A stretch of DNA of 63,532 nt, counting the filler, from Conidiobolus incongruus B7586 (lineage: Eukaryota): assembly GCA_000697335.1 (NCBI GenBank). It is 9 parts of 9 records of this genome, joined end to end, with 100 filler letters (N's around TTAATTAATTAA, not from the genome) between each part and the next. Parts side by side here need not be neighbours in the genome. Positions count along the whole stretch, not along the records: positions 11,461 to 18,190 come from JNEM01006493.1; 8 more parts are not named here. One strand, written 5' to 3'. Positions 33 to 63,532 of the stretch are shown here, piece by piece; the first letter of the stretch is position 1; every line of letters begins with the position of its first letter. Under the pieces are notes generated by a model that made no database searches, was not told the origin of the DNA, and worked only from the letters and a program-made list of their open reading frames with translations. A program made the position numbers and the translations under genes.

Positions 33-1328
33 TTACTTTGTATTTTCAATAATGGTAATTTTTTGTGATTAAAAATAAACAAATATTTTAAATATAATAT
101 ATAATAATAAATATTTAGTATAAATTCAATAGTTTTTTTTATTATTGATAATTTTTTGCTATATTTTTAGTAAACTTTTAATATCTAAATAATACTTTTT
201 TTTATTCAATATTAAAATCTAATATTTTTTAAATTAATCCAATTTTTTTGCAAAAATTTTTTTTCTTATAAGTTGGTTTTTTAATTGCTTAAAACAATTA
301 TAATTATATAGGTTATAATTTAAAGAATATATTAGATATGGTAGTTTTTTTATTTATTTTTAATTAGAAAGTTTTTTATAGCTTAAATTTATATTTTTTA
401 TTATTATTATGTAAAATCATAAGTTTTTTGAAATTATATTAAAAATACTAATTAAAATACTTTTATTAAAAAAATATAAAATTTAATATTAATTAATTTT
501 TCTTCAAGTATTTAATAAAAATAGTATATACTATTATAATCTATTATAATAATTTATATTCACTTATTAACAGAATGCTTATTTAAAAAAATTTGTAAAG
601 ATGGTTAATTTAGCTTAATCTCACATTTTGATTTGTATTTTAGTAAAAAATTACATATAAAAATCTAAGATTCATTAATTATAATTATATATTATAAAAG
701 TTTAAACTTCTAATACTATATTAATAAGTATTATTTAATAATAAATAAATTTAAATTTTTTTAAGTTAAATTATAAAATACCTATTTTATATTTTTATTT
801 ATTAATTTAAATTTAAATTTTAATATATATATAATACTTATAAGACTAATATTAAAATGCTTAGATAATTCTTTAGCTAAAATAAAAAGATGTTTTTCAA
901 TATATTTTTTCACTTTATTAATAATTAAAAAAGTGATAGTTAAAGTTGGATTTTTAAATTTTAACAGGTTTTAGATAATTTCTCTCTTAACCTTAAAATA
1001 ATTTGCCTAGTAATAAATTGTTAACTTAAATAATACTTTATTAATAAAAACTACTTAAAAATTTAAAATAATTTTAAAAAGCTTATGATTAAGTTTTATT
1101 ATTACTAAAATAATAGACTTTTGATAATTATTATTTAGTTTAAAAATGATTAAATTAAATAACTAATTTCAAAAAATTAATTTTTTAATCAAAAAAATTA
1201 TTATATAAATATATATTAAAAATATATAATTTCCTATTACCTTTGAATATATTTATTCATTTCAAACTAATAATAAATTTGAAAAATCAGAAATTTTTTA
1301 ATTTATGATTATTTCAAATTTAAGGAAA
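33..1328 (-). mobile_element. Full-length hypermutated mariner (DD34D) DNA transposon, copy 1
   Basis: Reverse complement aligns along its length with 16592..17949; imperfect TIR (TTACTTTGTA..TAATGG) at 33 and its counterpart at ~1300-1328; TA flanks; differences between copies are almost all transitions. Confidence 0.88.
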
Positions 1329-2426
1329 TAATATATAATAGTTCAAAATCTTTTCAATATTATATGAAAAATTTAATTTGCATTTATTAATATTTGGTGT
1401 TTTTATTATATTAATGATTTCAAGCTATAACGTAATAATATATTAATGAATATAACAAACCTATAATTAAAACTGAATTTTTAATATAATGAAATTATCA
1501 ACTAATATATAATTTTAAAATAAGAGTTTTTTATGATTTTAATGATAATTATTTATATATCTTTAAAATAATAATTTAATGTCATTATAAAAAACATATG
1601 AATTTATAATTTTCATCTTTATGACTTGATTAGATAATATAACTTATCATTTATAAAAGACTTCTTTTTATAAATTAACAGTCTTTTTTGTCAAAATTTA
1701 TTCTAATTCTTTTAAATATTGATGGAAAACAAAATATATCTTCAATATTTATTTAAAATTATTAAATTTATTAATTTTGATTGATATTTCAGAAACCATA
1801 GTAATTTATATATATATAGAAGTAAATGATAGTAAAAATCAAATATGTAGTAATTTCATGTTATTTATTATATAATAGCTTATTAATTAGTTTATGACCA
1901 ATTATATCAGTAATTATAATTTATAATCAATTTCAACTTAATTTGATTCCAAATTATTTTTATAATATATATATTTATTAATATGGCAATGAAAATAATC
2001 TATCTAACTTAAAATGCTACTGCTATTGTACTAGTTATAACTCTATCAAATATCATATATTTATTGCCAATCATAGATTTTGATAAGAAATTTTAAAAAT
2101 AAAAACAATTAGTCATTAAATCATCCCATTTTGCGTTTTATTGATATTAAGTAATTACTTTCATTTTTTTAATTTGTTTGGTTTGATAAAAGTTCAAGAT
2201 ATGTTAATTAAGGTTGTAAATATATATTTTTTAAGAAAGTTTGAAAATCAATTTATTCTTGTGAAAGTATTATTGAGTTTAAAAATTTTTAAATTTCTTC
2301 GGTATTTTTACTGTTTTCATTGGACTTGCGATTATGCCAATGTTTTTTAGTGATTAAGCTCAAAGGTGTCTTTTAGATATGAATATAGCAACCTTTCTCA
2401 CAGAAGCAGTTACCTCTTCTATTAAC

Positions 2427-4641: not shown

Positions 4642-6308
4642 TTAAAGTTTAGGAGCAGCAGCCAAAATTTCAGGAGTAGCATGGCTTTCGTATTCCTTAA
4701 AGTTTTCTAAGAAGAGGTTACCTAACTTGCGTAAGGTAGTGTTGTAAGCTTCACTGGTACCTAACCAAGCCTTAGCAGGGTTAAGTACTTCATCAGGAAC
4801 TCCAGAAACCTTGGTAGGGATTTGAAGATCGAAAACGGGATAGCTGACATATTCAGCATTTTCAAGTTCACCACTGTGGATAGCATCGATAATAGCACGA
4901 GAGTGCTTAAGAGCAATACGCTTACCAACACCATAAGCACCACCGTTCCAACCAGTATTAATTAACCAGACATTAACCTTGTGCTTCTGCATCTTTTCAG
5001 CAAGCATTTGAGCATATTTGACAGGGTGCCAGACCAAGAAGGGTTCACCGAAGCAGGCAGAGAAGGTAGCTTGAGGTTCAGTGATACCATCTTCGGTACC
5101 AGCAATCTTAGCAGTGTAACCAGAAATAAAGTGATACATAGCTTGAGCGGGAGTAAGCTTAGAAATAGGAGGAAGGACACCGAAAGCATCACAGGTAAGG
5201 AAGATAATGTTCTTGGGATGACCACCAACACACTTAGATTTGGCATTGGGGATGTATTCGATGGGATAAGCGCAACGAGTGTTCTCAGTGATAGAAACAT
5301 CATCATAGTCGACAACACGAGTTTCTTCGTCATAGACAACATTTTCTAAGACAGAGCCGAAACGAATAGCGTTGTAAATTTCAGGTTCTTTTTCGGCAGA
5401 GAGGCCAATACACTTAGCGTAACAACCACCTTCAATATTGAAAATACCATCATCTGACCAGCAGTGTTCATCATCACCAATCAAAAGACGACGAGGATCG
5501 GCGGATAAAGTAGTCTTACCAGTACCAGATAAACCAAAGAATAAGGAAACATCACCATCAGGACCTTCGTTAGCTGAACTGTGGAGAGAAAGGACACCAG
5601 CCTTAGGCATTAAGTAGTGCATAACAGTGAAGATACCCTTCTTCATTTCACCAGCATATTGAGTACCTAAGATGACCATTTCCTTACGAGCAAAATCAAT
5701 AGCTACACTGGTGGTAGAGGTCATACCAGAGGTGTAACGATTGGCAGGGAATTGACCAGCATTGAGGATAGTAAAGTCAGGAGTACCATAGTTTTGGAGT
5801 TCTTCATCAGTAGGACGAATCAACATGTTTCTCATGAAGAGAGCGTGGTAGGCACGAGCACAGACGACACGAACCTTAATACGATACTTGGGATCCCATC
5901 CAGCAAAACCATCAAAGACATAGAGCTTGGGACGAGTATTAAGGTAATCGACAGCTCTCTCGTGGTTGATGCGGAAGACATCGGAGGACATGGAGACGTT
6001 TACAGGACCCCACTATTTCAACTATTAATAAATGAAAAAAAAATATTCAATTAAATATATATACTTACCCAAATATCTTTAGAGGAATTGGGTTCGTCAA
6101 CAATACGCTTGTCTTTGGGGGAACGACCCTTCTTTTGACCAGAAGATGTAATTAAGGCACCAGTAGAGGAGAGAACGGTACCAGGTTCGTTCTGGAGGGC
6201 ATGTTCATATAACTGGGCAACAGACAAGTTGCGGAAAATGGCGGCATGAGTGTAATCGATACCAGCTTCAGTATGGAGTTGTTCTGAAATTTCGGGACCA
6301 AAAGGCAT
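4642..6308 (-). CDS. PCK1: Phosphoenolpyruvate carboxykinase (ATP); 2 exons, intron 6013..6068
   Basis: Start [10 protein letters not shown] at 6308; splicing GTAAGT..ATAG restores DIWWGPVN; motifs [24 protein letters not shown] (P-loop), [16 protein letters not shown]. Confidence 0.98.
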
Positions 6309-9300
6309 TTTGAATTTTTTACTCTGTAAGATTAGATTATTAAAATCGGAGAAGATAAAGAGTTTTGGTTTAAACGTCACAAGTCGACGAAAGAGCATTG
6401 CTTATATATGGAAAAAATTTATTCATTTATTTTCTCAGTATATTCATCAAAAGGCTCTGAACCACTTAGCACCAGTTCCGAAAACTGCCGGTCTCACTTC
6501 TTCAAATTTATTATGTTATTGGATCAATATGCTCAATTTTTAATAATTTACTCTATTTAATTTCAAATTATGGAAATTTTCTAAACTTACATTATAATTG
6601 TCCATTTTTACTGGATATAATAACATCTATATTCAATTTATACACAGTTCATACATTTTAACCAGTTAGACATCCGACTTGTACTATATTAATAAAACTT
6701 CAAATTGTTCAATTCTATAATATAGAGTATTCAAACAAGTCGAATTTTGCCTTTTTTATACATATTATATTGTATGTGAAAAACTGATTAAAAATAGAAT
6801 GGATCTTTTTACACCTTTCAAAAGAAAACAATTTCACATGAAACACAAACTATGATTGAACTAATCCTTCATTCTATCCAATCATATTGAACAATGAGTT
6901 TATTCATTCATAAAATGATTTACAAATAATGTGGTAAATTTGCTAATCCTTCGCTAATAATACAATGTTCTTTTAGCAGCAGAGGGTTTGTGATGAAACT
7001 TCATTAAACTTATGAGCTCAACCAATTGTAATTAATTTGTTCTTATTCAATCTATTTAAAAATTCTCAAAGTATCATATTTCTGCTACTTTTCCCCAACT
7101 CTTGTTACTTTCTTAAAGATGAATTTAGCCTTTTACATCCAAACTGTGTCTTAACTCATCTAGCACTCTAAAATGACACCATTGAGAAAGCTTTGGCAAA
7201 ATTCTTAAAATATTGCTCCAAAATTACATCACCTGCTATGAATTGGAAGTCATACCTCTACGGAATAGTTCGGAAGATTTGGTTTACATTCAATCGAATT
7301 GCAGTTTTATTTAACTCACAACAGAGCATTTATTTTTATTTATTGAGTTATTTAGCAAAAGATCATCAAATGTTTGATAAAACAATTTTTGAATTAAATA
7401 GAGTTATAGAGAAATAAAAATTCATCAGTTTTAAATAATAAAAACTACACGACTCATACTTCATTTCTTATTTATTGTAATATATACAATACTAATATAA
7501 ACAAACAGCTTATCCCATATAATATTGATCAAAATACACCTTGTGATTTGAAATAACAAATATGTCTGAAATTATACAGCTTTCGATTTATTACGAGCGT
7601 CTTAATAGTGATTAAAATTTAAAAGCTATTGATAGATGAAATGCACCAAATATCCCATATGACATATCATAACTTTTGTAAGGAATCCATCTTCAATTAA
7701 AAGTCATTCTTCAAATCCATAGGAATGACCCTTGAATAATTGCGATTACCGTTTTTTTCCTTTAAAGTATACAATATATCTATTAGAGTGTTGATATATT
7801 ATCCGCCCCTTTCATGTCTATTTTCGATAATAAAATATTTTACTATATACAATATAATACTAATATTATTGAATCAGATGCTATTCTTAATTATTATTAA
7901 TTGATTTGCATTCCATTAAAGTTAACATTATATTACAAATCAACCAATATAGTGAGCATTAAGAGTAAATATAACATAAATTTTATAATGAAACTATTAT
8001 CAAGATAATCACTAATATTTTTATCAAGTTTCAATATTCAATTAACTTCAACTGATTAATTTAAAAAATTTTTCATTGAGTTATTCGTATATAATTTAAC
8101 TATAACAGATTAAATCTAATTTAAATTATTTAATCTCAATTATTTTAAAATATCAAAATTTAACAAATTAATATTTTATTTAAAGACATGATTTTTAAAT
8201 GAATTATTTATAATGAAAATAGTTACATAATATCAATACAATTATAAATTGAAATTGATAAATATTAGCGATATTAACTAAACTCTAAATTTTTTTTAAT
8301 TTTACAAACTATATATTTTAAATTTATTTTATATAATTTATATTAACCATTAATTTTAAATTAATTTTTTATTATTGAGATAAATGTATAGTTGAATATA
8401 TTTCCTATTATTTCAAACTTATTGGATTATATAAAATAACCAATTATGATAAATGACAGCATTTATATTTCATAAATTTAGAAAATACTGAATGCTTAAA
8501 TAGTTTTAATAAAGGGTCTCAGTATTAACTTAAATTTATCAGATCCAAATATAGTATACACAATAATTATTTTAATTGAAATATTTAGTATAAACTATAA
8601 TTTGTGAGATAATATTATAATAAGATTAATTAAACAATATACTTTGTTTAACATAATACCAAATATATCAAAGTTGATTATTTATAATATTTAAATTAAC
8701 TAATCGTTTATTAATAATTAAATAATATTTAATATATTGATTTTATATTAAAATATTTTATTATATATTTGGACTAACTACAAATATAAAGTAAAAAATA
8801 AATTATCGTATAAAAGTTAATGTATTTTATTATTTTTCAAATACACTATACTTAAAATTATTAACTAAACAAATAGCAGATCCATTATTAATATAAAGTT
8901 ATTATATAAAATTTAGTAAAAATTATTTCATTCGTCTTCAAGTTGTTCCACATTATTATTTATTCCTCTCATTGATCATTCATTAATTAATTTCAGCTAA
9001 AATCATTTAATATCATATTAGTAGTTTATTTTCATTTTGTAATCTAAATATTAAAATATACATTATTTAATACAATTATAGTATTAAATATAGTATAATA
9101 TGCCTAAAGAGTTAAAAGCATTTATTTTTGTTTTTAATATTTGTTAGAATTTTATAAAATTGTACATAAAATAAAAACAGTGTATAACTAATGGATTATA
9201 TTGTAATTAATATTTTAAAGTGAATCATAAATCCAATGTTATTAAGCAAATTGGATAAAATGTAAATATTTTATATTGATATTGATTAACAAATAATAAT

Positions 9301-13404: not shown

Positions 13405-14776
13405 TTATTGATTAGTTGAGTTATTATTATTATTATTACTACTCGAACTATTTTCCACATTATTGTTATTATTATTTAATTTTTTCATTAATTTGGAATA
13501 TCTGAGACCGCAAGCATTGCACAATCTAAATAGTATAGGTTAATAATAGCGAAAAGTATGGATAGATATGGGAGGTTACGTTTTGGGACCTTGTGGTCCT
13601 TTTCGCCATTCGGGACTGTCCGATGTACCACAATCTCGACAAATGTGCTCAATATTTTGGGATCTTTTAGCCTAAAAATCTCAGTTGAAATGTGATAAAA
13701 ATTATATTAAAATAAAAAATTACCCGCTTTTTAGGTATTTGAGCCGAAGGAGTAGATTCTCCCACGAGCGCTTTTAATTGAGGATTTGGTTCGAAATTCT
13801 CTTGATTGGATTTACTCAAAGTACTAACCGTTTTATCCCCAGAGTCGTTATCATTCCCTTCATAAAATCGTTTATATCTCTCCAATTTTTTAGTTAAAAG
13901 TTCATTTTCAAGTTTCAATTCCAGAAAAGAATCTAATAGACTGATAGCTTTGCTTGGATAAGGTCTAGCCATCATAAAGAAACATTTTGGAGTATTAGTT
14001 TGATCGGCAAAATAAGGGTGACCGTTCACTTCAAATACTGCAAATTTATCGTCCTTCTTACGAAATCTATAAAATAAATTTAAGGATTTAGAATGGACAC
14101 TGAGGTTGAAATCGCGAATGAAGGAGTCGACGTCATCCACATGTATAAAATTGGTAATATTTTTACCCACTAGTTCATTGGTAGCGTACCCAGTTATCTC
14201 TAAACAAGAGGGTGAGCAAAATAGAAAACGACCACTGGGAGATAAAACATGTAAAAAATCGCGTAATTCACCCAAAATTTTATAGGGCCAATTCTTATTA
14301 GGACTACTTATAGAACCAATTAAACCAGTAAGCTGTTGAGGGATAGGCATCGAAGAATTATTGTCCTTATTGTTCATAGTGGTACCAGCGTTGGGGTCGA
14401 TCTGAATAGAGTTGTGTCGCGAAGCAGAAGGAGTGGAATTAGCAGAAGACATGGGGGGTACCATTTGTGCCAATTGGTTGTTCATAGTATTTTGACTAGT
14501 AGCCATCATAATAGAATCATTCATAAGTAAAGTATTTTGATTTGCAGTTAAATCGCCAGTTTCATTTGATAACATTCTGTTGGTGTATGTTAATGAAATG
14601 AAATTGGGATCGGGTTGCGAATGGGGGAGATGCTGTGGGAATTGACTCATATCGGGCTGAACAAGTGGTATTGAGCGACTGGGGTCAAAGATAGTAGTAT
14701 ACTGAGAGGGAATATTTGAATTTGCATTCGACAATGGAACATTTGTATTACGATTATTGATATTGGTATTATCCAT
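13405..14776 (-). CDS. wc-2: White collar-2-like PAS + GATA zinc-finger transcription factor; introns 13672..13723 and 13526..13579
   Basis: PAS domain ([25 protein letters not shown]), coiled coil [14 protein letters not shown], spliced GATA finger [30 protein letters not shown]; stop TAA at 13405-13407. Confidence 0.9.
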
Positions 14777-16591
14777 TTGATGCTAAATTTAGAGTAAAAC
14801 TAATAATGAAAGAATGAAAAGAATATAATAAAATATAAAGGTTAATATTTGATAGTCTATATCAAAGATTAAATTTAGTTAAAAGCATGACATCTACCTA
14901 CTTTTAAATCGAATTCTCATTTATTTTGACATTGGGTTACTATATCGGGTTGAGAATGAAATGGGAGAATGATTTTAGGTGATTCATCCAAGTTAAACCA
15001 ATTTAGAATAAGATCATCTCAAATCATATTATGTAAATCGATCCATACCATAATTTCATATGAGTAATACCTTCCATTTATGGACAGAATAAAATAATTG
15101 TAGATCGATCCAAAATGATCAATTATGGGATCTGAAGATCCCTTCAGTATATATTATGACTAATTCTCAACCAACTTAATATTTTCTGAGTGTTATTTAA
15201 TCTAATTGTTTAACTAAATATTTGATTATTTTTTCGATCAGAAATCAAAATAAACCAATATATATAACTAAAGATTAATACTACATAGAGTTAATGCATA
15301 TCAATTTATCTCGATCATGTAATTTAATACCTAAATTCATAAATACAATTTTATTCTTGTATTTTAATTGGTATTATCATTCCCACTTTTATTTAGATTA
15401 CCTTTCACATAATTCAAAGTAAATAATGCAGTTACTTAGCATCAATATTGATTACCACCAACAATCATCAGATTAGTTAACCGATTAAATTCAATTCCGA
15501 CAAAATATTTACAATCATTTCTAATTGAACTGTCAATAGGATTATTTTAACGCCTCCTATAACACATACTTCTCAATTCTCCTGAGAGGAGCATACCTGA
15601 AATTTATATTGGAGTTAAAGAGAAAATTTAAAGATTATTTGAGGATGATATAATTTATGTAATTTAAAGCTAGACTATATTTTACTACTCAAGTTTCAAT
15701 CGAAGGAAGATATAGAGCTATATGATCCATAACATGATTTTAAAATCTTTTTTTTAAATAATTTTTCGATTGATTATTTATCAATTATTAATTTTTAATT
15801 GTATTTGGAATATATTTAATTTGGTAGCTTGGCACTACCATAAGGATTCATATTTATATAACTTGTAAATAAAACAATAATTCAAAAATTTTATCATATC
15901 TGATTCTAAACAATTCATTCAGAAAATTATAACTAACAATCTATCTTTAGTCACGTTAATTGCGTATTAGAGTTAACCAAAACTAATAATATCCTACACC
16001 AATGTAGGGGCAACAAATATGACTGAATTTGAAATATCTTCATAGCCATACATGAATAATAAATTTACACACAGCAAATTAATTAATATCTTGATTCCAA
16101 GTGCAATATTTGGAAATTTCAATTTAAAATGTAAGGGATATTCATTAATCTACAAATTTCTATATATTATATTTATCAAAAAGTCGGGGTTTGAGTTTTC
16201 CACCATCCTTGTTGTAACAATGAATTACATAGTAAATATCCTTCAATCGATTAATATAAGCTTAATTATATATTTTATTACCATTAATGAGTGTTATTTA
16301 GCCAAGATTTTGGAATTATTTTATTTCACTTTAATATTTTTTATGATTATAATTTTAATCAAATTATAAACTCTAATTCATTTTGTTAAATACCTCAGTT
16401 TGGTAAATAATTAATTTGAATGTCTAAATTTATTGATTTCACCCCTATATTCTTTAACAGTTCATATGTATACTCATATTTTAATTAAATAATAACATTG
16501 ACCTTGATACAATTATCACACAATTATCATTTCTTGATAATTATATTAAAAACTATACAAATCAATTTTTTACATATATTTAAATATATTA

Positions 16592-17949
16592 TTACCTTGA
16601 ATTTAAAATAATGGGAAATTTTTTAGTTTGTAATTTTTTAAAATATAACTATAGAATTGAAGAAATGGGAAATTTTTTAATTTCCAATTTTTCAAACATA
16701 TTATTAGTTTCAATTAAAAAATATATACAAAACAAATAAGAAAATAAATAGTTTTAAATTATATATATATATAATAACTTTTTTTAATTAAAAAATAATT
16801 TTTTAAAATTAATTGTTTAATTTAATTATGCTTAAACTAAATAGTAAACATCAAAAGTTTTTTATTTTAGTATCAATAAAACTTAACCATAAACCCTTTA
16901 AAATCATTTAAAGTTTACAAGTAGCTTTTGGTAATGAAGTATTATCTAAATCAACAATTTATTGCTAGGTAAATTACTTTAAGATTAAGAGAGAAACTAC
17001 CTAAAACCTGTTAAAATCTAAAAAACTAATTTCAACTGTTACTTTTTTAATTATTAATAAAGTAAAAAAATATATTGAAAAACACCTTTTTATTTTAACT
17101 AAAGAATTATTAAAACACTTTAATATTAGTTACATAAGTATTTTATATATGTTAAAGTTTAAATTAATATTAATTAATAAAAATATAAAATAGGTACCTT
17201 ATAATTTAACTAAAGCTTAAAAAAATTAGAGTAGCTATTGTTAAACAAAACTTACTAAAGTATAACTAGAAATTAAAGTTTTTATAGCAAATTATTATAA
17301 TTGATGAATCTTAGATCTTTTTGTATAATCCTTTACTAAAACATAAATCAAAGTGTTAGATTAAGTTAAATTAACCTTTTCTACAAATTCCTTTAAATAA
17401 ATACTTTATTAGCAAGTGAATGTTAATTATTATAATAGATTATAATAATATATACTATTCTTATTTAGTTTTTAAAGGAAAATTAACTAATAATAAACTT
17501 TATATTTTTTTTAAATAAAACTATTTCTAATTGGTATTTTTAATATAATTTGAAAAAACTTATTATTTTACATAATAATTATAAAATATATAAATTTAAA
17601 GTTATAAAAAACTTTTTGATTAAAAATAACTAGAAAAAACTACCATATCTAATATATTCTTTAGATTATAACCTATATAATTATAATTGTTTTAGGTAAT
17701 TAAAAAACCAGCTTATAGGAAAAAAAATTTTTGCAAGAAAATTTAATTGGTTTGTAAAATATCAAATTTTAGTTATTAATAAAAAGAATTATTTTTTAGG
17801 TGTTATATCTTTGTTAAAAGTATAGCAAAAAGTAATTAGAAATAAAAAAAATTCTTAATTTTATATTATATATTTATTTTTACTTTTTATATATTAAAAT
17901 ATTTTTTTTTCAATTATAAAAAATTCCCATTATTTAAATTACAAAGTAA
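16592..17949 (+). mobile_element. Full-length hypermutated mariner (DD34D), copy 2; relic transposase ~16828..17860
   Basis: TA-flanked imperfect TIRs; from ATG 16828 reads LQVAFGNEVLSKSTIYC*VNYFK (mariner HTH), K*VPYNLT (WVPHEL motif, 17191), IIIIDES* (D1, 17303), LHNN (HDN, D2 codon 17574), LPYLIYSLDYNLYNY (YSPD..D3, codon 17679); D2-D3 distance 105 nt = DD34D. Confidence 0.93.
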
Positions 17950-17959
17950 TATTATTAAT

Positions 17960-18190
17960 TTTAAATAAATAATTATATACAAAATAAATAAGATAATATA
18001 TTGTTTTAAATTAAATATATATATATATATATTTAAAATAATTCTTTTGATTAAAAATTTAATTGTTTAAAATTGTTTGTTTAATTTAATTATAATTAAA
18101 CTTAATAATTATTATTTAAAGTCTTTTATTTTTAATATTATTTTAACATAAATATAAACGATCTAAAATTATTTCAAATTTACAAATAAC
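17960..18190 (+). mobile_element. Additional degenerate mariner 5' fragment, truncated by gap
   Basis: Repeats the left sub-terminal region and transposase 5' end of copy 2. Confidence 0.7.
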
Positions 18191-18290
18191 NNNNNNNNNN
18201 NNNNNNNNNNNNNNNNNNNNNNNNNNNNNNNNNNTTAATTAATTAANNNNNNNNNNNNNNNNNNNNNNNNNNNNNNNNNNNNNNNNNNNN

Positions 18291-21200
18291 CTTGGTATTG
18301 ACTCCCTCTCCTCAATTCAATTGTCCAACAAGTTGAAGGATCTCGGAAAACAGATTTCCGTTTTCAATTTGATGAAATTGTCTACTATTCAAGCTATTGC
18401 TGAAGAATTGGATAATTTAAGCACAAATCCCAATCAAGTCGATCAAAAGCTTACTGAAATGGTTGATCGTATTAAGAAATTTGAACAAGATATCAAACCC
18501 AAATTAGCTTCTCAATTAGGATTCAAGAATGTCGACAATATCGAAGAAGCTTACCCCTGTACGCCTTTGCAAGAAGGTATGCTTGCTATGTCTTTATCAT
18601 CTCCCCTCTTCGTAAATGTCAACAGTTTAACTTATAAAATTTCCAAAAGCGTCGATTTGGAACAATTGAGAGTTGCTTTGCAGAAAGTTGTTGACAATAA
18701 TCCCATTTTGAGGACTGGATTCTTCAGCTTATCAGACCACAATTACCAAATGACCCAAGCTGTCATATCATCAGATGCTCACGAACTCCAATTTGATATT
18801 CAAAAAATTAATAACAGTGAGGAATTGAATCAAGTGATTAAGACTTTCGTATTTCAATTGTCTCCACTCTCCTCACTGCCAGCCTCTTTACCGCATTTCT
18901 TTGGTTTCTCTTAATGAGTCTGATTACTTCGTTTTCACCATTCACCACTCACTGCTCGATGGTTGGAGTTTGTCATTGATGCTCGAAGATCTGGTCAAAA
19001 CCTATCTTGGCCAAGAACTCATCCAACCTCCCGAATTCAGAACTGTATCCGAGCATGTTCACGCTCAAGAATTGGACAAATCTTTGGAATATTTCAAACA
19101 ACAATTCGAAAATCATATTCCATCCATTTTCCCTAGCTTGTTGCCTGACGACGAATTTGAAGTGGAAATGACTGGTAATTCTATTTACCAAAAATCAGGT
19201 TTGAAGATGTTTCAAATTCAACAAATTGGTAAGAAGGTTGGCGTCGCTCCCCAAACTTTGTTGCAGTCCGCTTGGGCTAGATTACTATCTGCTTACAGTA
19301 ACGAAAAATGTCATCTTCAGTAATGTCGTTGTGGGTCATAGTATTTCAGTTGAGGGAGTCGAAAATATTCGAGGCCCCTGTTTGAATACTATGCCTTTTA
19401 GTGCAAATCTCAACAATGCCACTACCAACTTTGATTTATTGCAATTGGTAAAAACTTCTAACAATGAGCAATTTCCTCGCCCACATACTCCTCTCCGGAA
19501 GATTTTCAAGACTATCGGCCACAATGGACCCACCCCTCTATTTGATTCCTTATTCGTTTTCCAAAACATTGACGAATCTCAGCCCTTGAATGAAGGTCTT
19601 TGGGACTTGTACCACTACAAAAGTTTTATTTCTCACTCTATTGTAATGGAAATTGAAACTGATAAGTCCGACAATTTTCAAGCTCATTTACAAGTCGTCG
19701 CCCAACAATTAGATTTGACATTGGGTAACATTCTTGTCAATTTATTCGCCACTATCGACAACACTTCCAAGGTTGGTCAATCTATCAGCGACCAGTACTA
19801 CAATTTATCCTCATCTATTGACGGTGAAAAGAGCTTTGAAAATGATGAAGTTTACTTTTCAACACCAGTTTAGAAAAATTCGCCAATAGTATCCCGAAAT
19901 ACCTGCTATAAAATTTGTCGAAAACCTTGAGGATAGTAAAATTCCCAAATTTAAAGAACGGACTTACAAGCAATTCAATGCTAGAGCTAACCAAATCGCG
20001 AACTACTCGATTCAGCGCGGCGTCCAAATTGAAAAATGCAATATCGCTTGTATCCCTAGATCCCCCATTTTCTACGCTCCTACTTTGAGTATTTCCAAGG
20101 CTGGAGGTTGCTACTTCGGATTGGGTCCCGTATTCCTCAAAAATCGTAAGGTAATGTTAATTCACGAATCTGAAGCTGAATTTGTGTTGACTTTGGAAGC
20201 TATCGCCAAGGAACTTCCAGCTATAGATGGTGTAGAATACATCACCTTAGATATCAATTGCTATAGCGATAAGCTTAATGGTCAATCAGAAGCAAATGCC
20301 AAGATTAAAGAATTGACTATGAAACACTTGGGCTATACTATCTTTACTTTCGCCACCACTAGAACTCCCAAGGATGTATTGTTACAACATTCCAACTTCA
20401 AGTTCTTCATGCAGAACTTCAAAAAGTATATGTTCAAGCCCGTGGGCCACAAACAATTGTGCTTTTACAATTGTACTTTCGATACTCATGTTCTCGACTT
20501 GATTACCACCACCCATCTCGGAGATGCTATCTGCACTACCGAGCACTCCACTCTCTATACCAACCTAGAAAAGATTGCCAAATTTTTCAATGTGGATTAC
20601 CTCAACCTGCCCCCCGCCATATCTTTCGTAAATGTGGACAATTTACCCAACGTAGAAAATTTGTTCGTAACTGGTAAACAATGTAATAAGAGTTTGACAA
20701 AGGGATGGGGCAAACACAGAAGATTGATCAATAGTCACGAACTCTCAGAATGTACTTCGTTGAGTGTGACTCACAACGATTTGTGACCACTTTGTAAGCC
20801 TAATAACATCGGCCAGACTTCTCTCGATTGTACCGTGTATATAATTGACGCCAAATCCAAGGATTCGAAATTGTTGCCTCGCGACTGTGTTGGTGAAATT
20901 GCTATTGCCGGTCCCTAGGTCAGTCACGGTTACTTGATTAAGCCCGAACTCACCGCTGAAAAACTCGTCGAATGCATTGATTTTAAGAGTGCTAAACAAA
21001 GGTTGTACCGTAGTGGCGATTTCGGACGTATTTTAGTAGATGGTAGTATCGAAAGTTTGGGACGCTGCGATGACCAAGCCAAGGTGAATGGTATACGTAT
21101 CGAATTAAAGGGGATTAACGAAGCTTTGTCTAGAGCTTTTGGTACCATTTTTGTGCATACTTTGTTACTCAGCCACAGGAAATCTCCCAAGAAGCAATTG

Positions 21201-23173
21201 GTCATTTACCTCTTCCCAAGGCAACCTTCGGAAGAATGGATCAAAATTGGTCGTAAGCTGATCCAACCCAAAGGTGAATTTAGAGAATTACTTGCACATA
21301 TGCTCGCTAAAAGCCATAAGGATTTACCCGTCTATATAATTCTCCACTTGATATTGTTGATGACTAGCACTCCTTCCACTTCCAACTACAAAGTTGATTC
21401 CCGATTTTTAGCCAAGTTGTACCAAGATACTCCTTATGAAGGATTGGTCAAATTATCCAGTTTCCAACCCCAAGATGACAGTGAAGTTGTCTGGACCAAC
21501 TTACAATTAATTATTCACGACATTATCGCTCAATTCACTAAGACCACTCCTGACATCATTCGTCCAAACTCTTCCCTCTTTAGCTTGGGTGTCGACTCTA
21601 TCAGCTCAGCCGCTTGGGATACCCCATCACAGTTGGAGAAATCTTGCAGAAAGGAACCATCCAAAAGATCTCAGTACTATTCGTTGATAGAGAAGCCAAT
21701 GAAGAATCAGAATTAGTTGATATTAAAAAATTAGTGATTAAAACGGTTGAAGAGGATTTCGTACTCGTTAAAATCTCCGAAATGTTAGGACAAAATCCCG
21801 AAAATACCAAAAAAGTCGTGCCACCATCCATCTCGCAGATTTCTATGATTCAGAACAGTATCAACTTTGGCAAGGCCGAGTATAGTTTCGTATTCGGATT
21901 CTCTGCAGACAAGTTGTTGGATACCGACAGACTGGAGAGAGCTTAGTTCAGACTTCGGCAGTGTAATAGTATTTTGAAAACTGTTTTGTCCCTGTAGAGA
22001 ATGAGGAATTGCTTTTCTTGACTGAGATATTCAAGAAACCGGAAATGAATTTCACTTTGGAACGTATCCAAAAGAATGCTAGTCCCTAAGGCGGTGTTGA
22101 CTATATGAATCGTATCGATCGCCGTATGCTCAACCACAGGATCCCACCTTTGAACATGCACGTCCAGAACTTTAACGATCGCACCCTCTTTTTCATCTGC
22201 ATTCATCATAGGTTATACGATGCAGTCAGTATCGACGTGGTGGTAAATGAATTGGAGCAATTATACTTAGCCGATAGTGATGACGTTCCCAAAACAGCTC
22301 CATTCAAAAACTTGATTCAAAACGAAAAGAGTATCGATCAAAGCAAAATTTTCGACTACTGAAAACGACTTTCAAGGATGCGGAAGTGGTTGAATTTACG
22401 CAGAACCTATGAAGCACGGAAAAATCCCCAACTTTGGCAGTTATCGTGCAGCCATTCCTCTTCCCAATTTGGGTTGATTTGCAACTGTTAGTGCCTCGCC
22501 CCACTCCATCCTGTTAGCTTCATTGCATAAAGTTCAGGCTAATGACATTGGCAAAGGTAACGGTTTAGTCAGTTTAGTCCGTATGGGCCGTAGCGCTCCC
22601 GTCGAAGGTGTGGATAAGACGATCAATGCCTATTTTAACGTCCTTCCCATCTTCTTACCCAACATTAGCGACAAGTCCCTATTTGAAGTGGCTCAACTGT
22701 ACCAAAATCTCCAATACGAACAGATCAAGTATGGGAACACTTCGTTGGACCAAATTCACGAATGGATCGGCTTGCCATACAAACAAATAACCGATTTCAT
22801 CGTGAATTTGGCACGTCACCCCAAGGACTCCGTCCACTCGAGAGCTTCCGAACTCGAAGGCATGGACACTGTGGATCTCTTCGAACCCTTCGTTGAGGGC
22901 TATGCATGCTCCAAGTTCCGCTTCCATGAGACCAACTCGATGGACTTTATTTTGGAGCAGTGTTTCATATTCCAGCAGGTCGAAAATCACTTGGACGGCC
23001 TACAATGCATCTTCTCTCAGATGATAAATTTCTACTTCGACATTGCAGTCCATCCCGACGACGTGTTTTTTAACTTCAAGTACAATATGGGCTTACTTCC
23101 AGAGGACCGTTTCAAGAAGTTAATTGACCTCTGGGTGGATGACATTTTGGAATTGTCCAAGCAACAGATTTAA
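18291..23173 (+). pseudogene. Non-ribosomal peptide synthetase pseudogene (T-C-A-T-C), siderophore/ferrichrome synthetase-like; 5' end lost at gap
   Basis: PCP motifs LGIDSL (18291) and LGVDSI (~21585); C domains YPCTPLQEGM..HHSLLDGWS and HHRLYDAVS; A-domain cores YTIFTFATTRTPKDV, GEIAIAGP*VSHGYL, LYRSGD, GRCDDQAKVNGIRIEL; several frameshifts and in-frame stops (19871, 20784, 20916, 21944, 22360). Confidence 0.9.
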
Positions 23174-28583: not shown

Positions 28584-28736
28584 AATTTAAATTGGATAAA
28601 AGGGGTGATGTGACATAATTTGATTAATTTAATTTTATTGATAATAGTTTAGAATTTATGGGTTGAAAAAAAATTTTTATAAAAAAATTAGAAATTTTAG
28701 TAAAAATTTTTAATAGAATAATTAATTAATTAAATA

Positions 28737-29054
28737 TTACTAAAGAATTAAAGAAATGGGAAATTTTTTAATTTCTAATTTTTCAAACATATTACTAGTT
28801 TCAAATAAAAAAATATATATAAAACAAATAAGAAAATATATATATTTAAAATAATTTTTTTTGATTAAAAAAATAATTTTTTAAAATTAGTTATTTAATT
28901 TGATTATGTTTAAACTAAATAGTAACTATCACAAGTTTTTTATTTTAGTATTAGTAAAATTTAATCATAAATCCTCTAAAATCATAAAAAATTCATAAGC
29001 AACTTTTAATAATAAAACATTATTTAAATTAACAATTTATTACTAAGTAAATTA
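28737..29054 (+). mobile_element. Mariner 5' portion, interrupted at a TA by copy 3
   Basis: Left end plus transposase N-terminus up to ..ACTAAGTAAATTA, followed immediately by a new TIR TTACCTTAAATTT. Confidence 0.8.
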
Positions 29055-30346
29055 TTACCTTAAATTTAAAGTAATAAGAAATTTTTTAATTTTTGATTTT
29101 TCAAACATATTATTAATTTGAAATAAATAAATATATATAAAGTTAATAGGAAATTATATATTTATATATAATAATTTTTTTAATTAAAAAATTAACTTTT
29201 TAAAATTAATTGTTTAATTTATTATATTTAAACTAAATAATAATTATCAAAAGTTTTTTATTTTAATATTAGTAAAACTTAACTATAAACCCTTTAAAAT
29301 TATTTAAAATCTATAAATAACTTTTAATAATAAAATATTATCTAAATTAACAATTTATTACTAAGTAAATTACTTTAAAGTTAAGAGAGAAACTATTTAA
29401 AACTTCTTAAAATTAAAAAACTAACTTTAATTATTATACTTTTAATTGTTAATAAAGTGAAAAAATATATTAAAAAGTACTTTTTTATTTCAGTTAAAAA
29501 ATTATCTAAATACTTTAATATTAGTTTTACAAGTATTTTATATATATTAAAGTTTAAACTCAAATTAATAAATAAAAATATAAAATAAATACTTTATAAT
29601 TTAACTAAAGCTTAAAAAAAAGTTAGAGTAGTTATTGTTAAATAAAACTTACTAAAATATTACTAGATGTTTAAACTTTTACAGTGAATAATTATAATTG
29701 ATGAATTTTAAATCTTTATATATAATCTTTTATTAAAACACAAATCAAGATGTTAAATTAAGTTAAATCAACCCCTTTTATAAATCCTTTTAAATAAACA
29801 TTTTATTAATAAGCAAATGTTAATTATTATAATAGATTATAATAGTATATGCTATTCTTATTTAATTTTTGAAGGAAAATTAATTAATAATAAATTTTAT
29901 ATTGTTTTTTTAAATAAAAGTATTTTTAATTAGTATTCTCAATATAATTTGAAAAAACTTATTATTTTACATGTTAATTATAAAATATATAAATTTAAAA
30001 TTATAAAAAACTTTCTAATTAAAAATAACTAGAAAAAATTACCATATCTAGTATATTCTTTAGATTATAACCTATGTAATTATAATTATTTTAAGCAATT
30101 AAAAAACTAGCTTACAAAAAAATCTTTATAAGAAAATTTAATTGGTTTATAAAATATTAAATTTCAATCTTTAATAAAAAAAACTATTTTTCAAATGTTA
30201 GATCTTTGTTAAAAGTATAGCAAAAAGTTATTAGGAATAAAAAAATTATTAATTTTATATTATATATTTATTTATATTTTTTATATATTAAAATATATAT
30301 TTTTTTTCAATCACAAAAAATTCCTATTATTTAAACTACAAAGTAA
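29055..30346 (+). mobile_element. Full-length hypermutated mariner, copy 3
   Basis: Colinear with copy 2 including the DE (~29700) and YSLD (~30054) relic motifs; right TIR ..TTCCTATTATTTAAACTACAAAGTAA|TA. Confidence 0.9.
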
Positions 30347-30744: not shown

Positions 30745-31614
30745 TCAGTCACAATAAGAATTATATTGATGATTCCAAAAATTTTTGTGATAAGTATGAA
30801 ATTTATCTTGAAAGTGTATAACACATTCAATAGGGTCGAGAAATCGATCGGTACCACAATTTGTTCCATTGGAAGGAGGTGCAGCTAATATTGGGTACTC
30901 GTAATGCTGATATCCAGGTTCCACGGGCAAATTTGGTATGACATCTTGGGGATTGAATACTCGAGAGCTAACAAGGCCACAGCTATTGAGATAATTCGTA
31001 AATGCAGAATCGCCAACTCTAGGAGCCGAATAAGTGATCAATTTAGTATTATTCCAATCGATGAGTTTGTCAGCTCTCGCCATTAATAGCGCAATAACGG
31101 CCAATGCACCCCCTAAACTGTGACCAGTGAACAGCAAGTCATAGTTGGGACGTTCGTTTTTAGCCCACTTCAAAGCATCCCTTACCAGAGGGTACACACT
31201 CATCACATCGATCCAAAACCCCTTGTGCACCAGCATTGGTGTATTATCCACAACCATCGGCATTGGTAACAAATCCAAATTCAGGATCCAATTTTTTAGA
31301 TCTTTTGAACCTCTGAAAGCCATCACAATCAGTTTTTCATTATCGTCAATTGCTGTATACCCTGTGACGTTGAGGAATTCGTTGTAGATATATTTCGTTT
31401 GGATTTGGCTACTATTGCCTTTGCAGTAAGGTTTGCACGTCCATGAAAGAATGTCCTCCTCTTTGCAATAGGTTGTGAATGGGTAATGGATGTAGTTTTG
31501 AGCGTCTATCTCTGTCCCAGATTGGATTTTCATTAAAGATTTGGTTATTGGTAGAAGGGGTTCAAGCTGAGAATGTATTGTTAATAAACAATTTGCTAAA
31601 ATTAATAGCTTCAT
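30745..31614 (-). CDS. Secreted class 3 lipase (alpha/beta hydrolase), paralogue A
   Basis: Signal peptide; IVMAFRGS, VHKGF, TGHSLGG nucleophile elbow, TYSAPRVGD, DVIPNLP. Confidence 0.93.
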   Translation of the reverse strand: MKLLILANCLLTIHSQLEPLLPITKSLMKIQSGTEIDAQNYIHYPFTTYCKEEDILSWTCKPYCKGNSSQIQTKYIYNEFLNVTGYTAIDDNEKLIVMAFRGSKDLKNWILNLDLLPMPMVVDNTPMLVHKGFWIDVMSVYPLVRDALKWAKNERPNYDLLFTGHSLGGALAVIALLMARADKLIDWNNTKLITYSAPRVGDSAFTNYLNSCGLVSSRVFNPQDVIPNLPVEPGYQHYEYPILAAPPSNGTNCGTDRFLDPIECVIHFQDKFHTYHKNFWNHQYNSYCD

Positions 31615-34548: not shown

Positions 34549-34829
34549 TATCTAAACAAAGTAATAAAATGGATAATTTAAAATTACTTATAATTATAAT
34601 GATATTTAATTACTTATAATTGATTTTATTTTAAACTATTTTATATTAAAACATTATTGAATATAATTGATGAACCTATAATATATATTTAATATATAAT
34701 TTAGTTTAAATTTAAAATTAACAAATTAGTTACTTTTATTAAATTCTAAATTTATAACAAAATTTTAATAATTTTAACTAAATAATTATAATTTTTTGAA
34801 TCAAAAATCAAATAAAAAATAATTAATAT

Positions 34830-35323
34830 TAAAAATAGAATTAATAAAGTGGGAAATTTTTTAATTTCTGATTTTTCAAACTTTTTATTATTTTCAAATA
34901 AAAAAAATAATTTTTTAAAATTAGTTTTTTTTAATTATACTTAAATTAAACAGTAATCATTAAAAGTTTTTTATTTTAATATTAGTAATATTAAACCATA
35001 AACCTTTTAAAATTATTTAAAATTTATAAGCAGCTATTAATAATGAAGTATTATTTAAATTAATAATTTATTTCAAAATATATTACTTTAAAGTTAAAAA
35101 AAACTATTTAAAACTTGTTAAAATTTAAAAGATTAATTTTAACTATTATTTTTTCAATTATTAATAAAGTAAAAAAATATATTAATAAGTATTTTTTAAT
35201 TTTAATTAAAAAATTATTAAAATATTTTAATATTAGTTATATAAGTATTATATATATATATTAAAGTATAAATTAAAATTAATTAATAAAAATATAAAAT
35301 AAGTATTTTACAATTTAACTAAA
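34830..35323 (+). mobile_element. Mariner 5' part truncated by gap
   Basis: Aligns to ~16660..17213 of copy 2. Confidence 0.85.
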
Positions 35324-44339: not shown

Positions 44340-44505
44340 AATTAAATTATAATTATATTAAAAATAATTTGCAAAATTTTTTAATAAAAAAAATCATTAT
44401 ATATTCTCCTAATTATTTTGTATATATTTTTTTCTGAAATTAGTAATATATTTGAAAAATCAAAAATTAAAAAATTTTTCATTTTTAATTCTAAGATGAT
44501 ATTAT
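44340..44505 (-). mobile_element. Mariner left-end fragment beside a gap
   Basis: Reverse complement of the left sub-terminal sequence (TTTGAAAAATCAAAAATTAAAAAATTTTTCATT). Confidence 0.65.

Positions 44506-57816: not shown

Positions 57817-57817
<1 letters not shown>

Positions 57818-57855
<38 letters not shown>
57818..57855. repeat. (TTA)n microsatellite
   Basis: About 12 tandem TTA units. Confidence 0.9.
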
Positions 57856-59026: not shown

Positions 59027-59287
59027 TTACTCTGTATTTTTCATAATAGGAATCTTTGATAATTAAAAATAAATAATATAAATTTAATAGTTTCTTTTAT
59101 TATTAATAACTTTTTACTATATTTTTAGCAAACTTCTAATATTTAAAAAACAGTTTTTTTATTAAAGATTAAAATTTGATGTTTTATAAATTAATTAAAT
59201 TTTTTTATAGAAATTTTCTTTCTTATAAGCTAGTTTTTTAATTACTTAAAACAATTATAATTATATAAGCTATAATCTAAGGAATAT
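59027..59287 (-). mobile_element. Mariner 3' end, interrupted by LTR retrotransposon insertion
   Basis: Right TIR at 59027; colinear with other copies until the YSPD relic (..CTAAGGAATAT), where TGTAAG begins. Confidence 0.85.
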
Positions 59288-59810
59288 TGTAAGTGTTGTG
59301 GTAGTTAAACTAATATAGTGCAGAGGAAGACTTAATATAAAAGTAGTGTGGTGCAGAATGTGGTAATATAATGTGGCTGTAGTGTGCAAGTGTAAACAAA
59401 GTTTAATTAAGCTTCAAACTAGGATGAGTCACCAATATATTAAGATTTATATTAGGTAGTGCCAATATCCTACAATATTGACAGAATATAGTCTCAATCT
59501 TAGAAATAGTGTGAAAGTAAAAAATAGTAAGAATTGAGAGGAAAAAGAAGAACCTAGTTTATTAGATAATTTAATACTATTTATACAATTAATTTAACTA
59601 TATAAGTATAAATTAATCATATAATTTATAGTTAATTGGATTATATGAAAGTGTATATAAGAATTTAGAGAACTAGTCTCTTAACACTCCCCTAGTGGGT
59701 TTCTTAGAGGAGACACACTCCCTAATTTTTTGCAAATAGGTATAATAGGCTGAGGTATTCTTAATATTTTCTAGAGGTTCCTATGTAGCTTCTTCAATAG
59801 GATAACCCCT
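59288..59810 (-). mobile_element. LTR retrotransposon 3' LTR (59288..59686) with polypurine tract and internal stub
   Basis: TG..CA termini (TGTTAAGAG..CTTACA on minus), preceded by purine tract AGGGGAG; begins exactly where mariner homology stops. Confidence 0.75.
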
Positions 59811-60047: not shown

Positions 60048-61317
60048 ATTAATTAACTAAAATATAAACCTTTAAATTTTACCTAGGGTGAGTTATAAAT
60101 TTGTGGGTTTTTGATGATAAAAAAAATTAAAACCTAATATATCTACCTTTAGCTTTTCTAATTTCTTTAAGTTTGTAGGGTATAGAATCAACTAACTTCT
60201 TACACTAAAAAGGGTTAATTTTGTTCTATACTTCTTAAATATATTTTTAAAGTTGATTTAAATCTTTAACTAAGGGGAAAACTTTAATAGCTTTTTTTAA
60301 TTAATCCCAAAAATATTTAATTAGATTAAAATTAAAAGATTAAAGAAACTACTTTATAACTGTTAACTTGTTATTTTTAAGCTATTTGGTAATAGAAGCT
60401 ATAATATAGCAAGAGGTATTATCTTGCTAGAAAATAATATCAGATTTATTTAACCTATATTATTCAATGGTTTTTTTTAATTTATTGTTTAGAATATTTT
60501 AATACATCTCAACATTAATTCCCCTATTAACTTTACAAAGATACCTTATACCTAAAGACAATATATATCCCCAAACAATAATTAACTTATTATTGTACTT
60601 TTGGGTAAAATTAACATAATAGTTATAAAGTAGTTCTATATTTTTTTTTGAAGCATTTAGCTTTTTTATCAAATTTACTAAGGTATATTTTTGTTTCATC
60701 AAACTAAATAACCTTACTCTATTTAGTTTTAATTCAACATTAGTGGTGACATTTAAACTTTTACCTAGCTTTACAATAAGATTTCTTTAGTTGGGGGTGT
60801 TTTTTCTTAAAGTGTAAGTGGTATCTATGCTAATGTAAAGTATATATAATAGTATTAGTGCTAACTAATATTCTTATATAGTCTTATAGTTCCTGCTATA
60901 TTTCTACAATAGTATTATACTTGCCTATATTAATTAACCTATAGATATACTTCTCATCATATTTATTTATAATCCTAGCATACTTAAATTTAAGTTTAAA
61001 TATTTTTTTATTGTTATTCTTAACAGTTTTAACTATAATAAACTAGTTAACATTAGTAATTCTAACAATATCATAAGTTAATTTACCTTTTTTATAAAGT
61101 TAATTAATATACAAGTAAATTTTTTTAGAGAGGGATTTAAGTATAATAATACTTATAAAAAAATTTAATATATCTGTAAAATATAATATAAAATAATAGC
61201 AAAGAGAGAAAAAGGATATAGTTATATATTGTTAAATATATCCCTTTATTTCAAAAACCCACAAATTTATAACTTATCTTAGTTAAATATTAAAGGTTAA
61301 TATTTTTGCTAATAGTT
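60048..61317 (-). mobile_element. Full-length hypermutated Tc1-like (DD34E) DNA transposon
   Basis: ~60-bp inverted repeats (..AGTTATAAATTTGTGGGTTTTTGA at ~60091-60113 and its reverse complement at ~61250-61275); relic frame KVI*FDETK, IIVWGYI, IF*QDNTSCY (D at 60421-60423), *FL*SFNFNLIKYFW (E>K at 60316-60318, 34 residues after D), LVDSIPYKLKEIRKAKGRYIRF*. Confidence 0.92.
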
Positions 61318-62341
61318 TANNNNNNNNNNNNNNNNNNNNNNNNNNNNNNNNNNNNNNNNNNNNTTAATTAATTAANNNNNNNNNNNNNNNNNNNNNNNNN
61401 NNNNNNNNNNNNNNNNNNNTATCTTTTTATTATTTAAAAATATAATGATAAGTTAATTATAATTTAAAGATATATATTATCTTTTAATATAAAATATTTT
61501 TTTAAAATTAATAAAGGAATTAATATTAAGATATATTAAAATATTTTAAATAAAGAATTAAAATAATTATTGAATAATATAATTTAAATAAATTAGATAT
61601 GATTTTTTAATAAGAAAATAATCTTTGTTATATTATTATTTTTAATACTATATAGTTTAAAAATTATAAACATTAGTTATAAAATAATTCCTTTAATTTT
61701 TTAACTTTAATTTAATTAAATTAATTTAAGATTAATTAAAAAAATTAGTTAAAACTTTCCTATCAGAATAAATTTAAATAAGCTTTAAAAATATATTTAA
61801 GTAACTTAAAACAAAATTAATTTTGCTTAATATATAAAGTTAATTGACATTATACCTTATAAACTTAAAAAAATTAAAAAAAACAAAAAATAAATATATT
61901 AAGTTTTAATTTTTTTTTATAACTAAAATATAAAAATTTATAACTTATTTTAATTAAATTTGAATTTTTATTTATTAACTAAAAGTTAATATAAATTAAT
62001 CAAATATATATAATTATAAATAGATATTATAAGTTTATTGTATATTATAGTTTAAATTGATTTAATTAAGAATTAATAGAAATATTAGTAAAAAAATATA
62101 TATATTCATAATTTTATGACTTATTTTTATAGGTTAATATATATTAATATTAAAATCTAAATTAATTAATAATATTATTATTTAAATAGCTTATAATACA
62201 ATAAAAGCTAATAAAAACTAAAATAGCTATAATTGAATAAATTTTAATAAAATATAATTAAAATAAAAGATTTTCAAATATTCTATAATAATTAATCAAT
62301 TATATATTTTAAAAAAGAAATAATAATTGAAAAATAAAATA

Positions 62342-63532
62342 TTACTTTGTAATTTAAATAATGGGAATTTTTTGTGATTGAAAAAAAAACATTTGAATAT
62401 ATAAAAAGTAAAAATAAATATATATTATAAAATTAATAGTTTCTTCTATTTTTAATAACTTCTTGCTATATTTTTAGCAAAAATCTAACACTTGAAAAAT
62501 AGTTTTTTTTATTAAAGATTGAAATTTAATATTTTACAAACTAATTAAATTTTCTTGCAAAAATTTTTTTCTTATAAGTTAGTTTTTTAATTGCTTAAAA
62601 TAATTATAATTACATAGATTATAATGTAAAGAATATATTAGATATGGTAGTTTTTTCCAGTTATTTTTAATTAAAAAGTTTTTTATAACTTTAAATTTAT
62701 AAATTTTATAATTATAATATAAAATAATAGGTTTTTTAAATTATATTGAGAATACTAACTAAAAATAGTTTTATTTAAAAAAGAAATATAAAGTTTACTA
62801 TTAATTAATTTTTTTTTAAAAACTAAATATGAATAGCATATGCTATTATAATTTATTATAATAATTAACATTTATTTATCAACAAAGTATTTATTTAAAA
62901 GAATTTATAAAGGGGGTTGATTTAACTTAATCTAATACTTTAATTTATGTTTTAGTAAAGGATTATACAAAAGAATTTAAGATTCATTAATTGTAATAAT
63001 TTATTATAAAAATTTTAGTTTCTAGTTATACCTTAGTAAGTTTTATTTAACAATAGCTATTTTAGTTTTTTTTAAGCTTTAGTTAAATTATAAGATATTT
63101 ATTTTATATCTTTATTAATTAATTTTAATTTAAATTTTAATATATACAAAATATTTATGTAACTAATATTAAAGTATCTTGATAATTCTTTAACTAAAAT
63201 AAATAGGTACTTTTCATATTATTTTTTTACTTTATTAATAATTAAAAGAGTAATAGTTGAAATTAATTTTTTAGAATTTAGTAGGTTTTGGGTAGTTTTT
63301 CTCTTAATCTTAAAATAATTTACCTAGTAATAAATTGTTAATTTAAATAATACTTCATTATTGAAAGTTGCTTATAAATTTTAAATGATTTTAAAAGATT
63401 TATGGTTAGGTTTTACTAATACTAAAATAAAAAACTTTTGATGTTTATTATTTAGTTTAAGCATAATTAGATTAAAAAATTAATTTTAAAAAATTATTTT
63501 TTTAATTAAAAAAGTTATTATATATATATATA
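62342..63532 (-). mobile_element. Near full-length hypermutated mariner, running off the window end
   Basis: Right TIR at 62342 (TTACTTTGTAATTTAAATAATGGGAATTTTT); colinear with 33..1200. Confidence 0.9.

Follow-up and report, generated by a model that had tools for sequence, protein, structure and literature searches.

Transposon relics at the locus and their host

The window, by which we mean the whole 63,532-nt stretch of Conidiobolus incongruus B7586 DNA analysed here, contains a full-length AT-rich element (copy A), and a BLAST search of the window with 16592-17949 recovered three further long copies (matched at 29048-30346, 33-1295 and 62342-63532) together with several fragments.

16592..17949, + strand: mariner (DD34D) copy A, full length; 14.9% GC, CpG 0
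16828..17860, + strand: transposase relic of copy A; frameshifts at about 17218-17225 and at 17504-17506, many stops
17303 GAT, 17574 AAT, 17679 AAT: catalytic codons of copy A
17949..18190, + strand: mariner 5′ fragment of the same family as copy A, ending at an assembly gap
29055..30346, + strand: mariner copy B; 85% identity to A, 11.9% GC, CpG 0
33..1330, − strand: mariner copy C; 83% identity to A, richer in transversions
62342..63532, − strand: mariner copy D; 88% identity to A, cut at the window end
34820..35323, + strand: mariner 5′ fragment, ending at an assembly gap
28720..29056, + strand: mariner 5′ fragment, immediately upstream of copy B
59067..59306, − strand: mariner 3′ fragment

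A preliminary description of this DNA took the repeat for a mariner whose transposase motifs stay in register, and this is borne out by several features. When a 229-residue frame of copy B was read with its stops as X and compared with 177,635 PDB sequences at E ≤ 10, the only matches were to Mos1 transposase (best E 9e-6), and the second and third catalytic codons of copy A, both AAT, lie 105 nt apart, which is the DD34D spacing. The ends of copy A form imperfect inverted repeats of about 30 bp (27/33 ungapped matches) with a TA on either side (16590-16591 and 17950-17951), so that transposase similarity, DD34D spacing, terminal inverted repeats and TA target duplication, the features of mariner membership, are all present. 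The C-terminal piece of copy A has SETMAR as its best PDB match, a weak one (E 0.04), and three eroded pieces of copy A returned 0 Pfam families. Motif order, D34D spacing, TA-flanked inverted ends and a length of about 1.3 kb are shared with the Mos1/SETMAR mariner and Tc1 transposons; unlike those, every copy in the window is dead. No intact close relative was found among 7,992 candidates at E ≤ 0.01, and a plasmid search was likewise without a match. The family is very abundant, with 22,930, 18,450 and 17,886 assembly contigs matching 16800-17860 at ≥80% identity, counts that come from three runs of one sample, possibly the window's own source, and are not independent.

Copy A also carries an extra subterminal unit of about 50 bp (16592-16690) that repeats part of the inverted end. 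It is common to copy A and the fragments at 28720 and 34820 and is absent from copies B and C, a distribution that suggests two mariner subfamilies. The eight gaps of the window (e.g. 18191-18290) each consist of 44 N, a 12-base AT linker and 44 N, an assembly joiner, and most are located at transposon fragments.

A taxonomic marker elsewhere in the window indicates the host.

4642..6401, − strand: PCK1; 97% identity to Conidiobolus coronatus

Its product shares 441 of 455 residues with C. coronatus KXN69354.1, and in a tree of 29 rows, none of them from Dikarya, it groups with C. coronatus at a support of 100/100, and both fall within a clade, supported at 98/96, that also contains Neoconidiobolus, Entomophthora and Massospora; no Dikarya are named among the best 120 matches. 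Because of the 97% identity, PCK1 places the host in the Conidiobolus group (Entomophthorales, Zoopagomycota) and outside Dikarya, as had been supposed, and speaks against an ascomycete host.

Directional change in the mariner copies

The copies had been described as free of CpG, and they are: the count is 0 in each of copies A, B, C and D, where 7.5, 4.6, 4.2 and 5.0 would be expected. They had also been said to differ almost only by transitions, which stands for A, B and D (transition/transversion ratios of 6.4 for A-B, 8.1 for A-D and 5.2 for B-D, over 939 ORF columns away from gaps) and does not stand for the three pairs involving copy C, where the ratio is only 2.2–2.8. Indels amount to 4–10 events per copy pair over 1.19 kb, and two of them are the frameshifts of copy A. 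Private transversions were counted at 4/682 A/T columns in A, 3/670 in B, 25/696 in C and 6/678 in D, that is, about 0.5–1% of A/T sites per copy and 3.6% in copy C, which is probably older or belongs to another subfamily. Against this background, 73, 109, 114 and 97 of 222 inferred C/G sites are now T/A in copies A, B, C and D (33–51%), each figure a lower bound as sites lost in all four copies are invisible, and in copies A, B and D the change per non-CpG cytosine is 50–100 times the transversion rate.

The frequency with which copies have a mutated state in common is about that expected under independence; the copies mutated independently. No same-strand runs or patches were found in any of the four mariner copies (runs equal or exceed the null), a weak test because many rounds would erase the signal. 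The earlier statement that conserved motif residues had changed by transitions holds in part, since at several motif positions the four copies agree with one another and would require an ancestral residue different from that of Mos1.

Genome-wide contigs extend the comparison. Relative to copy A, the 22,930 contigs of run X1 show C>T at 84 of 86 C and G>A at 78 of 83 G, and any transversion at only 69 places. At 742 of the 892 A/T positions of copy A no G or C reaches 1%, and at the other 150 a G or C is present, often as the majority; we read these as ancestral bases lost in copy A. The mariner ancestor would accordingly have had at least 30% GC, where the copies now have 12–15%. A maximum-GC estimate from the four copies alone gives 22.5%, which understates the ancestor because sites lost in all copies go unseen.

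Independent polarisation by a Tc1-family transposon

60130..61138, − strand: Tc1-family transposase relic T1; gapless against an intact 338-aa homologue, bar one frameshift
61436..62126, + strand: second, more eroded Tc1 copy T2; 8.6% GC, 74% identity to T1

The element region around T1 (59911-61319) has 19% GC and 0 CpG against 13.3 expected. Among the 88 T1 residues that are conserved in ≥60% of 21 homologues, 43 have changed, 36 of them by C>T/G>A alone and 0 by the reverse alone, and any single transversion class explains at most 3 of the 43. When residues common to the two closest homologues are used instead, 78 of 107 changed residues require only C>T/G>A and 3 the reverse, as compared with a mean of 19/107 and a maximum of 32 in a shuffled null. 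At codon positions fixed as G/C we counted 72 transitions and 6 transversions out of 137; at those fixed as A/T the changes numbered 18/186, a maximum because differences between lineages are counted in. T2, like mariner copy C, carries many A/T transversions.

Sequence context of the changes

In both families the order of contexts is CpG ≥ CpA > CpT > CpC. Likelihood estimates from the four mariner copies give 0.90 for CpG (6 sites), 0.56 for CpA (72), 0.45 for CpT (112) and 0.29 for CpC (32), so that 216 of the 222 scored sites lie in an inferred non-CpG context, and codons of the Tc1 relic have lost 15/16 CpG, 20/28 CpA, 10/15 CpT and 12/32 CpC, the CpT figure being inflated by Arg/Lys exchange. 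The 3′ base of the cytosine affects the rate (p 2e-7) and the 5′ base barely does (p 0.08), with a slight preference for 5′ T (0.53 vs 0.41 after A). Codons for Trp, His, Gln and Pro are all affected. Eight Trp sites across the four mariner copies read TAG 19 times, TAA 7, TGG 4, TGA 0 and GAG 1, with 1 gapped; three of these sites were assigned by Mos1/SETMAR alignment, two by an intact TGG, and three by what we take to be the usual mariner motifs. These counts place CpA well above CpC and CpT, at a rate (26/30) that exceeds the 0.56 of the four-copy estimate. The preliminary description had proposed a context wider than CpA, and non-CpG sites at large are indeed affected, only not evenly. 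An apparent CHG preference (0.66 vs 0.44 for CHH) was dropped, as GWC is as depleted as CWG.

Genes, spacers and a broken NRPS in the window

Taken together, the repeats of the window (10.5 kb) have 12.8% GC and 1 CpG where 43 are expected, as compared with 37.7% GC and 0.69 of expected CpG in genes and 21.3% GC and 0.66 in other non-coding DNA. A broken gene provides a further control.

18291..23173, + strand: broken NRPS (condensation, adenylation and carrier domains; frameshifts, stops)

This multi-module NRPS, which adjoins an assembly gap and a mariner fragment, has 40.6% GC, 173 CpG against 200 expected (0.87) and a mixed substitution spectrum: its changed conserved residues are explained by C>T/G>A alone in 16 of 59 cases, by the reverse in 7 and by single transversion classes in 24, a spectrum that differs from that of Tc1 (Fisher p 1e-8). 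Because no fungal NRPS homologue was present among 903 candidates of 523-2000 aa, it was polarised on seven bacterial modules, which share only 26% identity with it, and the gene itself could be of any age and copy number.

With published RIP index cut-offs (product ≥1.1, substrate ≤0.75; PMC6714961), mariner copies A, B and D and Tc1 T1 pass, copy C falls short (product 1.09, substrate 0.84), and 0 of 5 spacers pass, nor do the NRPS and PCK1, in all of which the composite index is negative. Single-copy DNA is thus largely spared, with spacers, genes and the broken NRPS keeping their CpG and CpA, and the mutation pattern of the repeats is absent from spacers and the NRPS as far as these allow a test. 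Up to 500 bp from repeats CpG is reduced (12 vs 50 expected) and CpA is normal, and farther out CpG returns to about 0.7; unannotated old repeats may contribute to this loss, for example 59307-59810.

That 504-bp segment has 29% GC, 0 CpG against 10 expected and raised TpA/ApT, and is probably a further, less eroded repeat, its family unassigned. Four other stretches (43181-45146, 49005-49728, 51417-52112 and 57441-58197) contain no CpG where 6-13 would be expected, and hardly any or none of their sequence is recognised as repeat; they may be old repeats represented only once in the window. Beside mariner copies, 30745-31626 and 32822-33691 encode tandem intact single-ORF class 3 lipase paralogues with 49% amino acid and 60% nucleotide identity; as a control the pair was rejected for being too diverged (10 transitions and 18 transversions at 4-fold sites). 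A PCK1 metagenome scan for an orthologous control locus gave none that was useful among the 80 loci returned, all at ≤80% identity. Among the genes, 13670-14782 (− strand) is an exon of a PAS-domain protein that we take to be WC-2-like, and 46346-47032 encodes a small, apparently secreted protein whose matches to lytic polysaccharide monooxygenase are weak and lie below the Pfam cut-offs.

Discussion

In two unrelated transposon families of the window, C>T/G>A change runs in one direction and is restricted to the repeats; it has removed almost all of their CpG and no less than a third to a half of the remaining cytosines. The repeat-directed hypermutation proposed for a non-Dikarya fungus is real, confined to repeats and directional, as the contigs, the Tc1 relic, the NRPS and the CpG counts agree in showing. 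It works in a RIP-like way, though it may not be RIP proper, and the different machinery suggested for it in the preliminary description is a conjecture.

Each of the known systems resembles it in part. RIP in Neurospora crassa and other Pezizomycotina, which involves RID and DIM-2 pathways, shares the dense C:G>T:A change in repeats, the index values and the stop-killed transposases, and in part the favoured CpA (PMC12543289, available text). The Conidiobolus pattern differs from Neurospora RIP in its Zoopagomycota host, in the complete loss of CpG (a context above CpA here, CpA being the top among the non-CpG contexts), in the substantial change at CpT and CpC, and in the absence of the same-strand mutation runs that each round of Neurospora-type RIP leaves. 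The Dim2 mutator of Zymoseptoria tritici likewise produces repeat-restricted C>T with CpA as the main non-CpG target, and by analogy its mitotic mode would fit a gradual accumulation on both strands, but more than 98% of its C>T changes are reported at CA with CG spared, whereas here CG is the most lost and CT and CC are substantial (PMC8016269). Basidiomycete hypermutation, attributed to Masc2/DNMT1-type enzymes, shares the total CpG loss in repeats and is confined to CpG/TpCpG, unlike the mostly non-CpG sites here; the same source, in its available part, links CpG signatures to Masc2-type enzymes and CpA/CpT signatures to RID (PMC4352252).

The closest precedent lies in the same order. Entomophthorales are reported to show RIP-like composition, with a composite RIP index signal covering 24.2% of Zoophthora radicans, values being low in three relatives, and to encode two-domain methylases that the accessible text does not claim as RID homologues; its authors suggest that RIP may act outside Dikarya (PMC11105155). 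That precedent, as far as the text available goes, consists of a composite dinucleotide index in large-genome Entomophthoraceae, and what is new here is alignment-polarised, context-resolved evidence with controls, from the Conidiobolus branch. Searches of the literature turned up no study documenting by alignment that Conidiobolus repeats are hypermutated at non-CpG sites, and subscription papers or supplements could hold one. For the sister species C. coronatus, the accessible portion of a kingdom-wide screen lists 6.4% repeats with no AT-rich k-mer enrichment in them, and 0 1-kb repeats at 95-100% identity against 555 at 80-95% (PMC12543289).

The explanation that we favour, at a probability a little under one half, is repeat-targeted cytosine methylation, in which CpG methylation is combined with a putative mutagenic DIM-2-like methyltransferase acting on non-CpG sites. 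The scatter over two strands, the total CpG loss and the CpG-only halo in the flanks point to methylated heterochromatin, and a non-CpG rate far above that of transversions with its peak at CpA points to more than passive decay; jointly they argue for this pairing of activities. Each inserted copy would be marked as heterochromatin and then methylated, and methylated or enzyme-bound cytosines would deaminate without repair. Mutations would accrue in many small doses on both strands, which would account for the absence of strand runs, although that absence would also be expected after many rounds of true RIP. CpG methylation would spread a few hundred bases into the flanks while the non-CpG activity stayed on the repeat, target cytosines would become thymines far faster than background, taking GC from about 30% to 9–19%, and with stops at nearly all Trp/Gln codons and the catalytic aspartates lost the transposases would be dead for good. 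Precedents reported in part are the mitotic C>T mutation at CA that depends on Dim2 in Zymoseptoria (PMC8016269) and, in early-diverging fungi, DIM-2/DNMT1 enzymes and repeat-focused 5mC (PMC11258239, PMC7862722). Since Zymoseptoria Dim2 spares CG, the context most lost here, a second process must be added. Also counting against the favoured explanation, early-diverging fungi have been described, in the available text, as near devoid of 5mC (PMC13297926), and C. coronatus is scored no_rip in the accessible part of the screen (PMC12543289); in the literature, we found no list of DNMTs for Conidiobolus.

True RIP, that is, homology recognition before meiosis (at the zygospore stage) with bulk CpA mutation by a RID-like or unrelated enzyme and CpG lost through ordinary methylation, is possible, and we rather doubt it. 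CpA is clearly the strongest non-CpG context, RIP indices separate copies A, B and D and T1 from the spacers, the NRPS and PCK1, the copies are now 83–89% identical, near the RIP identity limit of roughly 80%, and the lipase paralogues, which share 60% of their nucleotides, have stayed intact. The RIP indices and two-domain methylases of Zoophthora and Entomophthora also speak for it (PMC11105155), but same-strand runs are absent in four copies, CpT and CpC are heavily affected with CpG gone, RID is reported only from Pezizomycotina and a few other Dikarya (PMC5751038), and in the screen, as available, strong signatures are restricted to four classes of ascomycetes (PMC12543289). Passive decay, by which dense methylation in all contexts and slow spontaneous deamination of 5mC would act without a mutagenic enzyme, is unlikely. 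It agrees with the involvement of both strands, the lack of runs, the primacy of CpG and the CpG-only flank halo, and CpG-linked transposon hypermutation is known in basidiomycetes (PMC4352252). What counts against it is the rate in copies A, B and D, which exceeds the roughly 10–30-fold of passive CpG decay in mammals and does so at non-CpG sites. The title of Clutterbuck 2017, which may cover Conidiobolus, reportedly names CG deficiency in 'some lower fungi'.

In simulations with assumed, illustrative spectra, only an 80-fold C>T setting gave about 14% GC with few transversion columns, a further point against passive decay, although it overshot the transition columns (210 vs 164 seen); mild and strong AT-biased spectra yielded far more transversions than observed. 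The latter result also weighs on neutral genome-wide AT drift, the least probable of the explanations and already largely refuted: non-coding DNA at only 21% GC and the A/T transversions of copy C and T2 are in its favour, but the repeats lie below unique spacers (20–27% GC) despite starting near 30%, gene GC3 is 0.27–0.43, and the broken NRPS retains 41% GC, its CpG and its mixed spectrum. A cytidine deaminase guided to repeats or repeat transcripts independently of methylation would suit the broad context and the slight 5′ T preference, and is nonetheless very improbable, as the 3′ base sets the rate, strand bias is absent and the total CpG loss points to methylation.

A bolder possibility, somewhat less likely than not, is that Conidiobolus, an early-diverging lineage of Zoopagomycota from which RID is not reported, has a genuine RIP-like defence that actively mutates CpA and other non-CpG cytosines of repeats with its own methyltransferase; repeat-directed mutagenesis would then be older than Dikarya or of independent origin, and would possibly work without meiosis. 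In published surveys, RIP-like mutagenesis centred on CpA is limited to a few classes of ascomycetes, and k-mer screens can probably miss such mutation in AT-rich genomes. Polarised evidence from two transposon families in a culturable genus of zygomycete grade would push repeat-directed mutation to the base of the terrestrial fungi, and would open two questions to experiment: is RID required for RIP-like mutation, and is meiosis?
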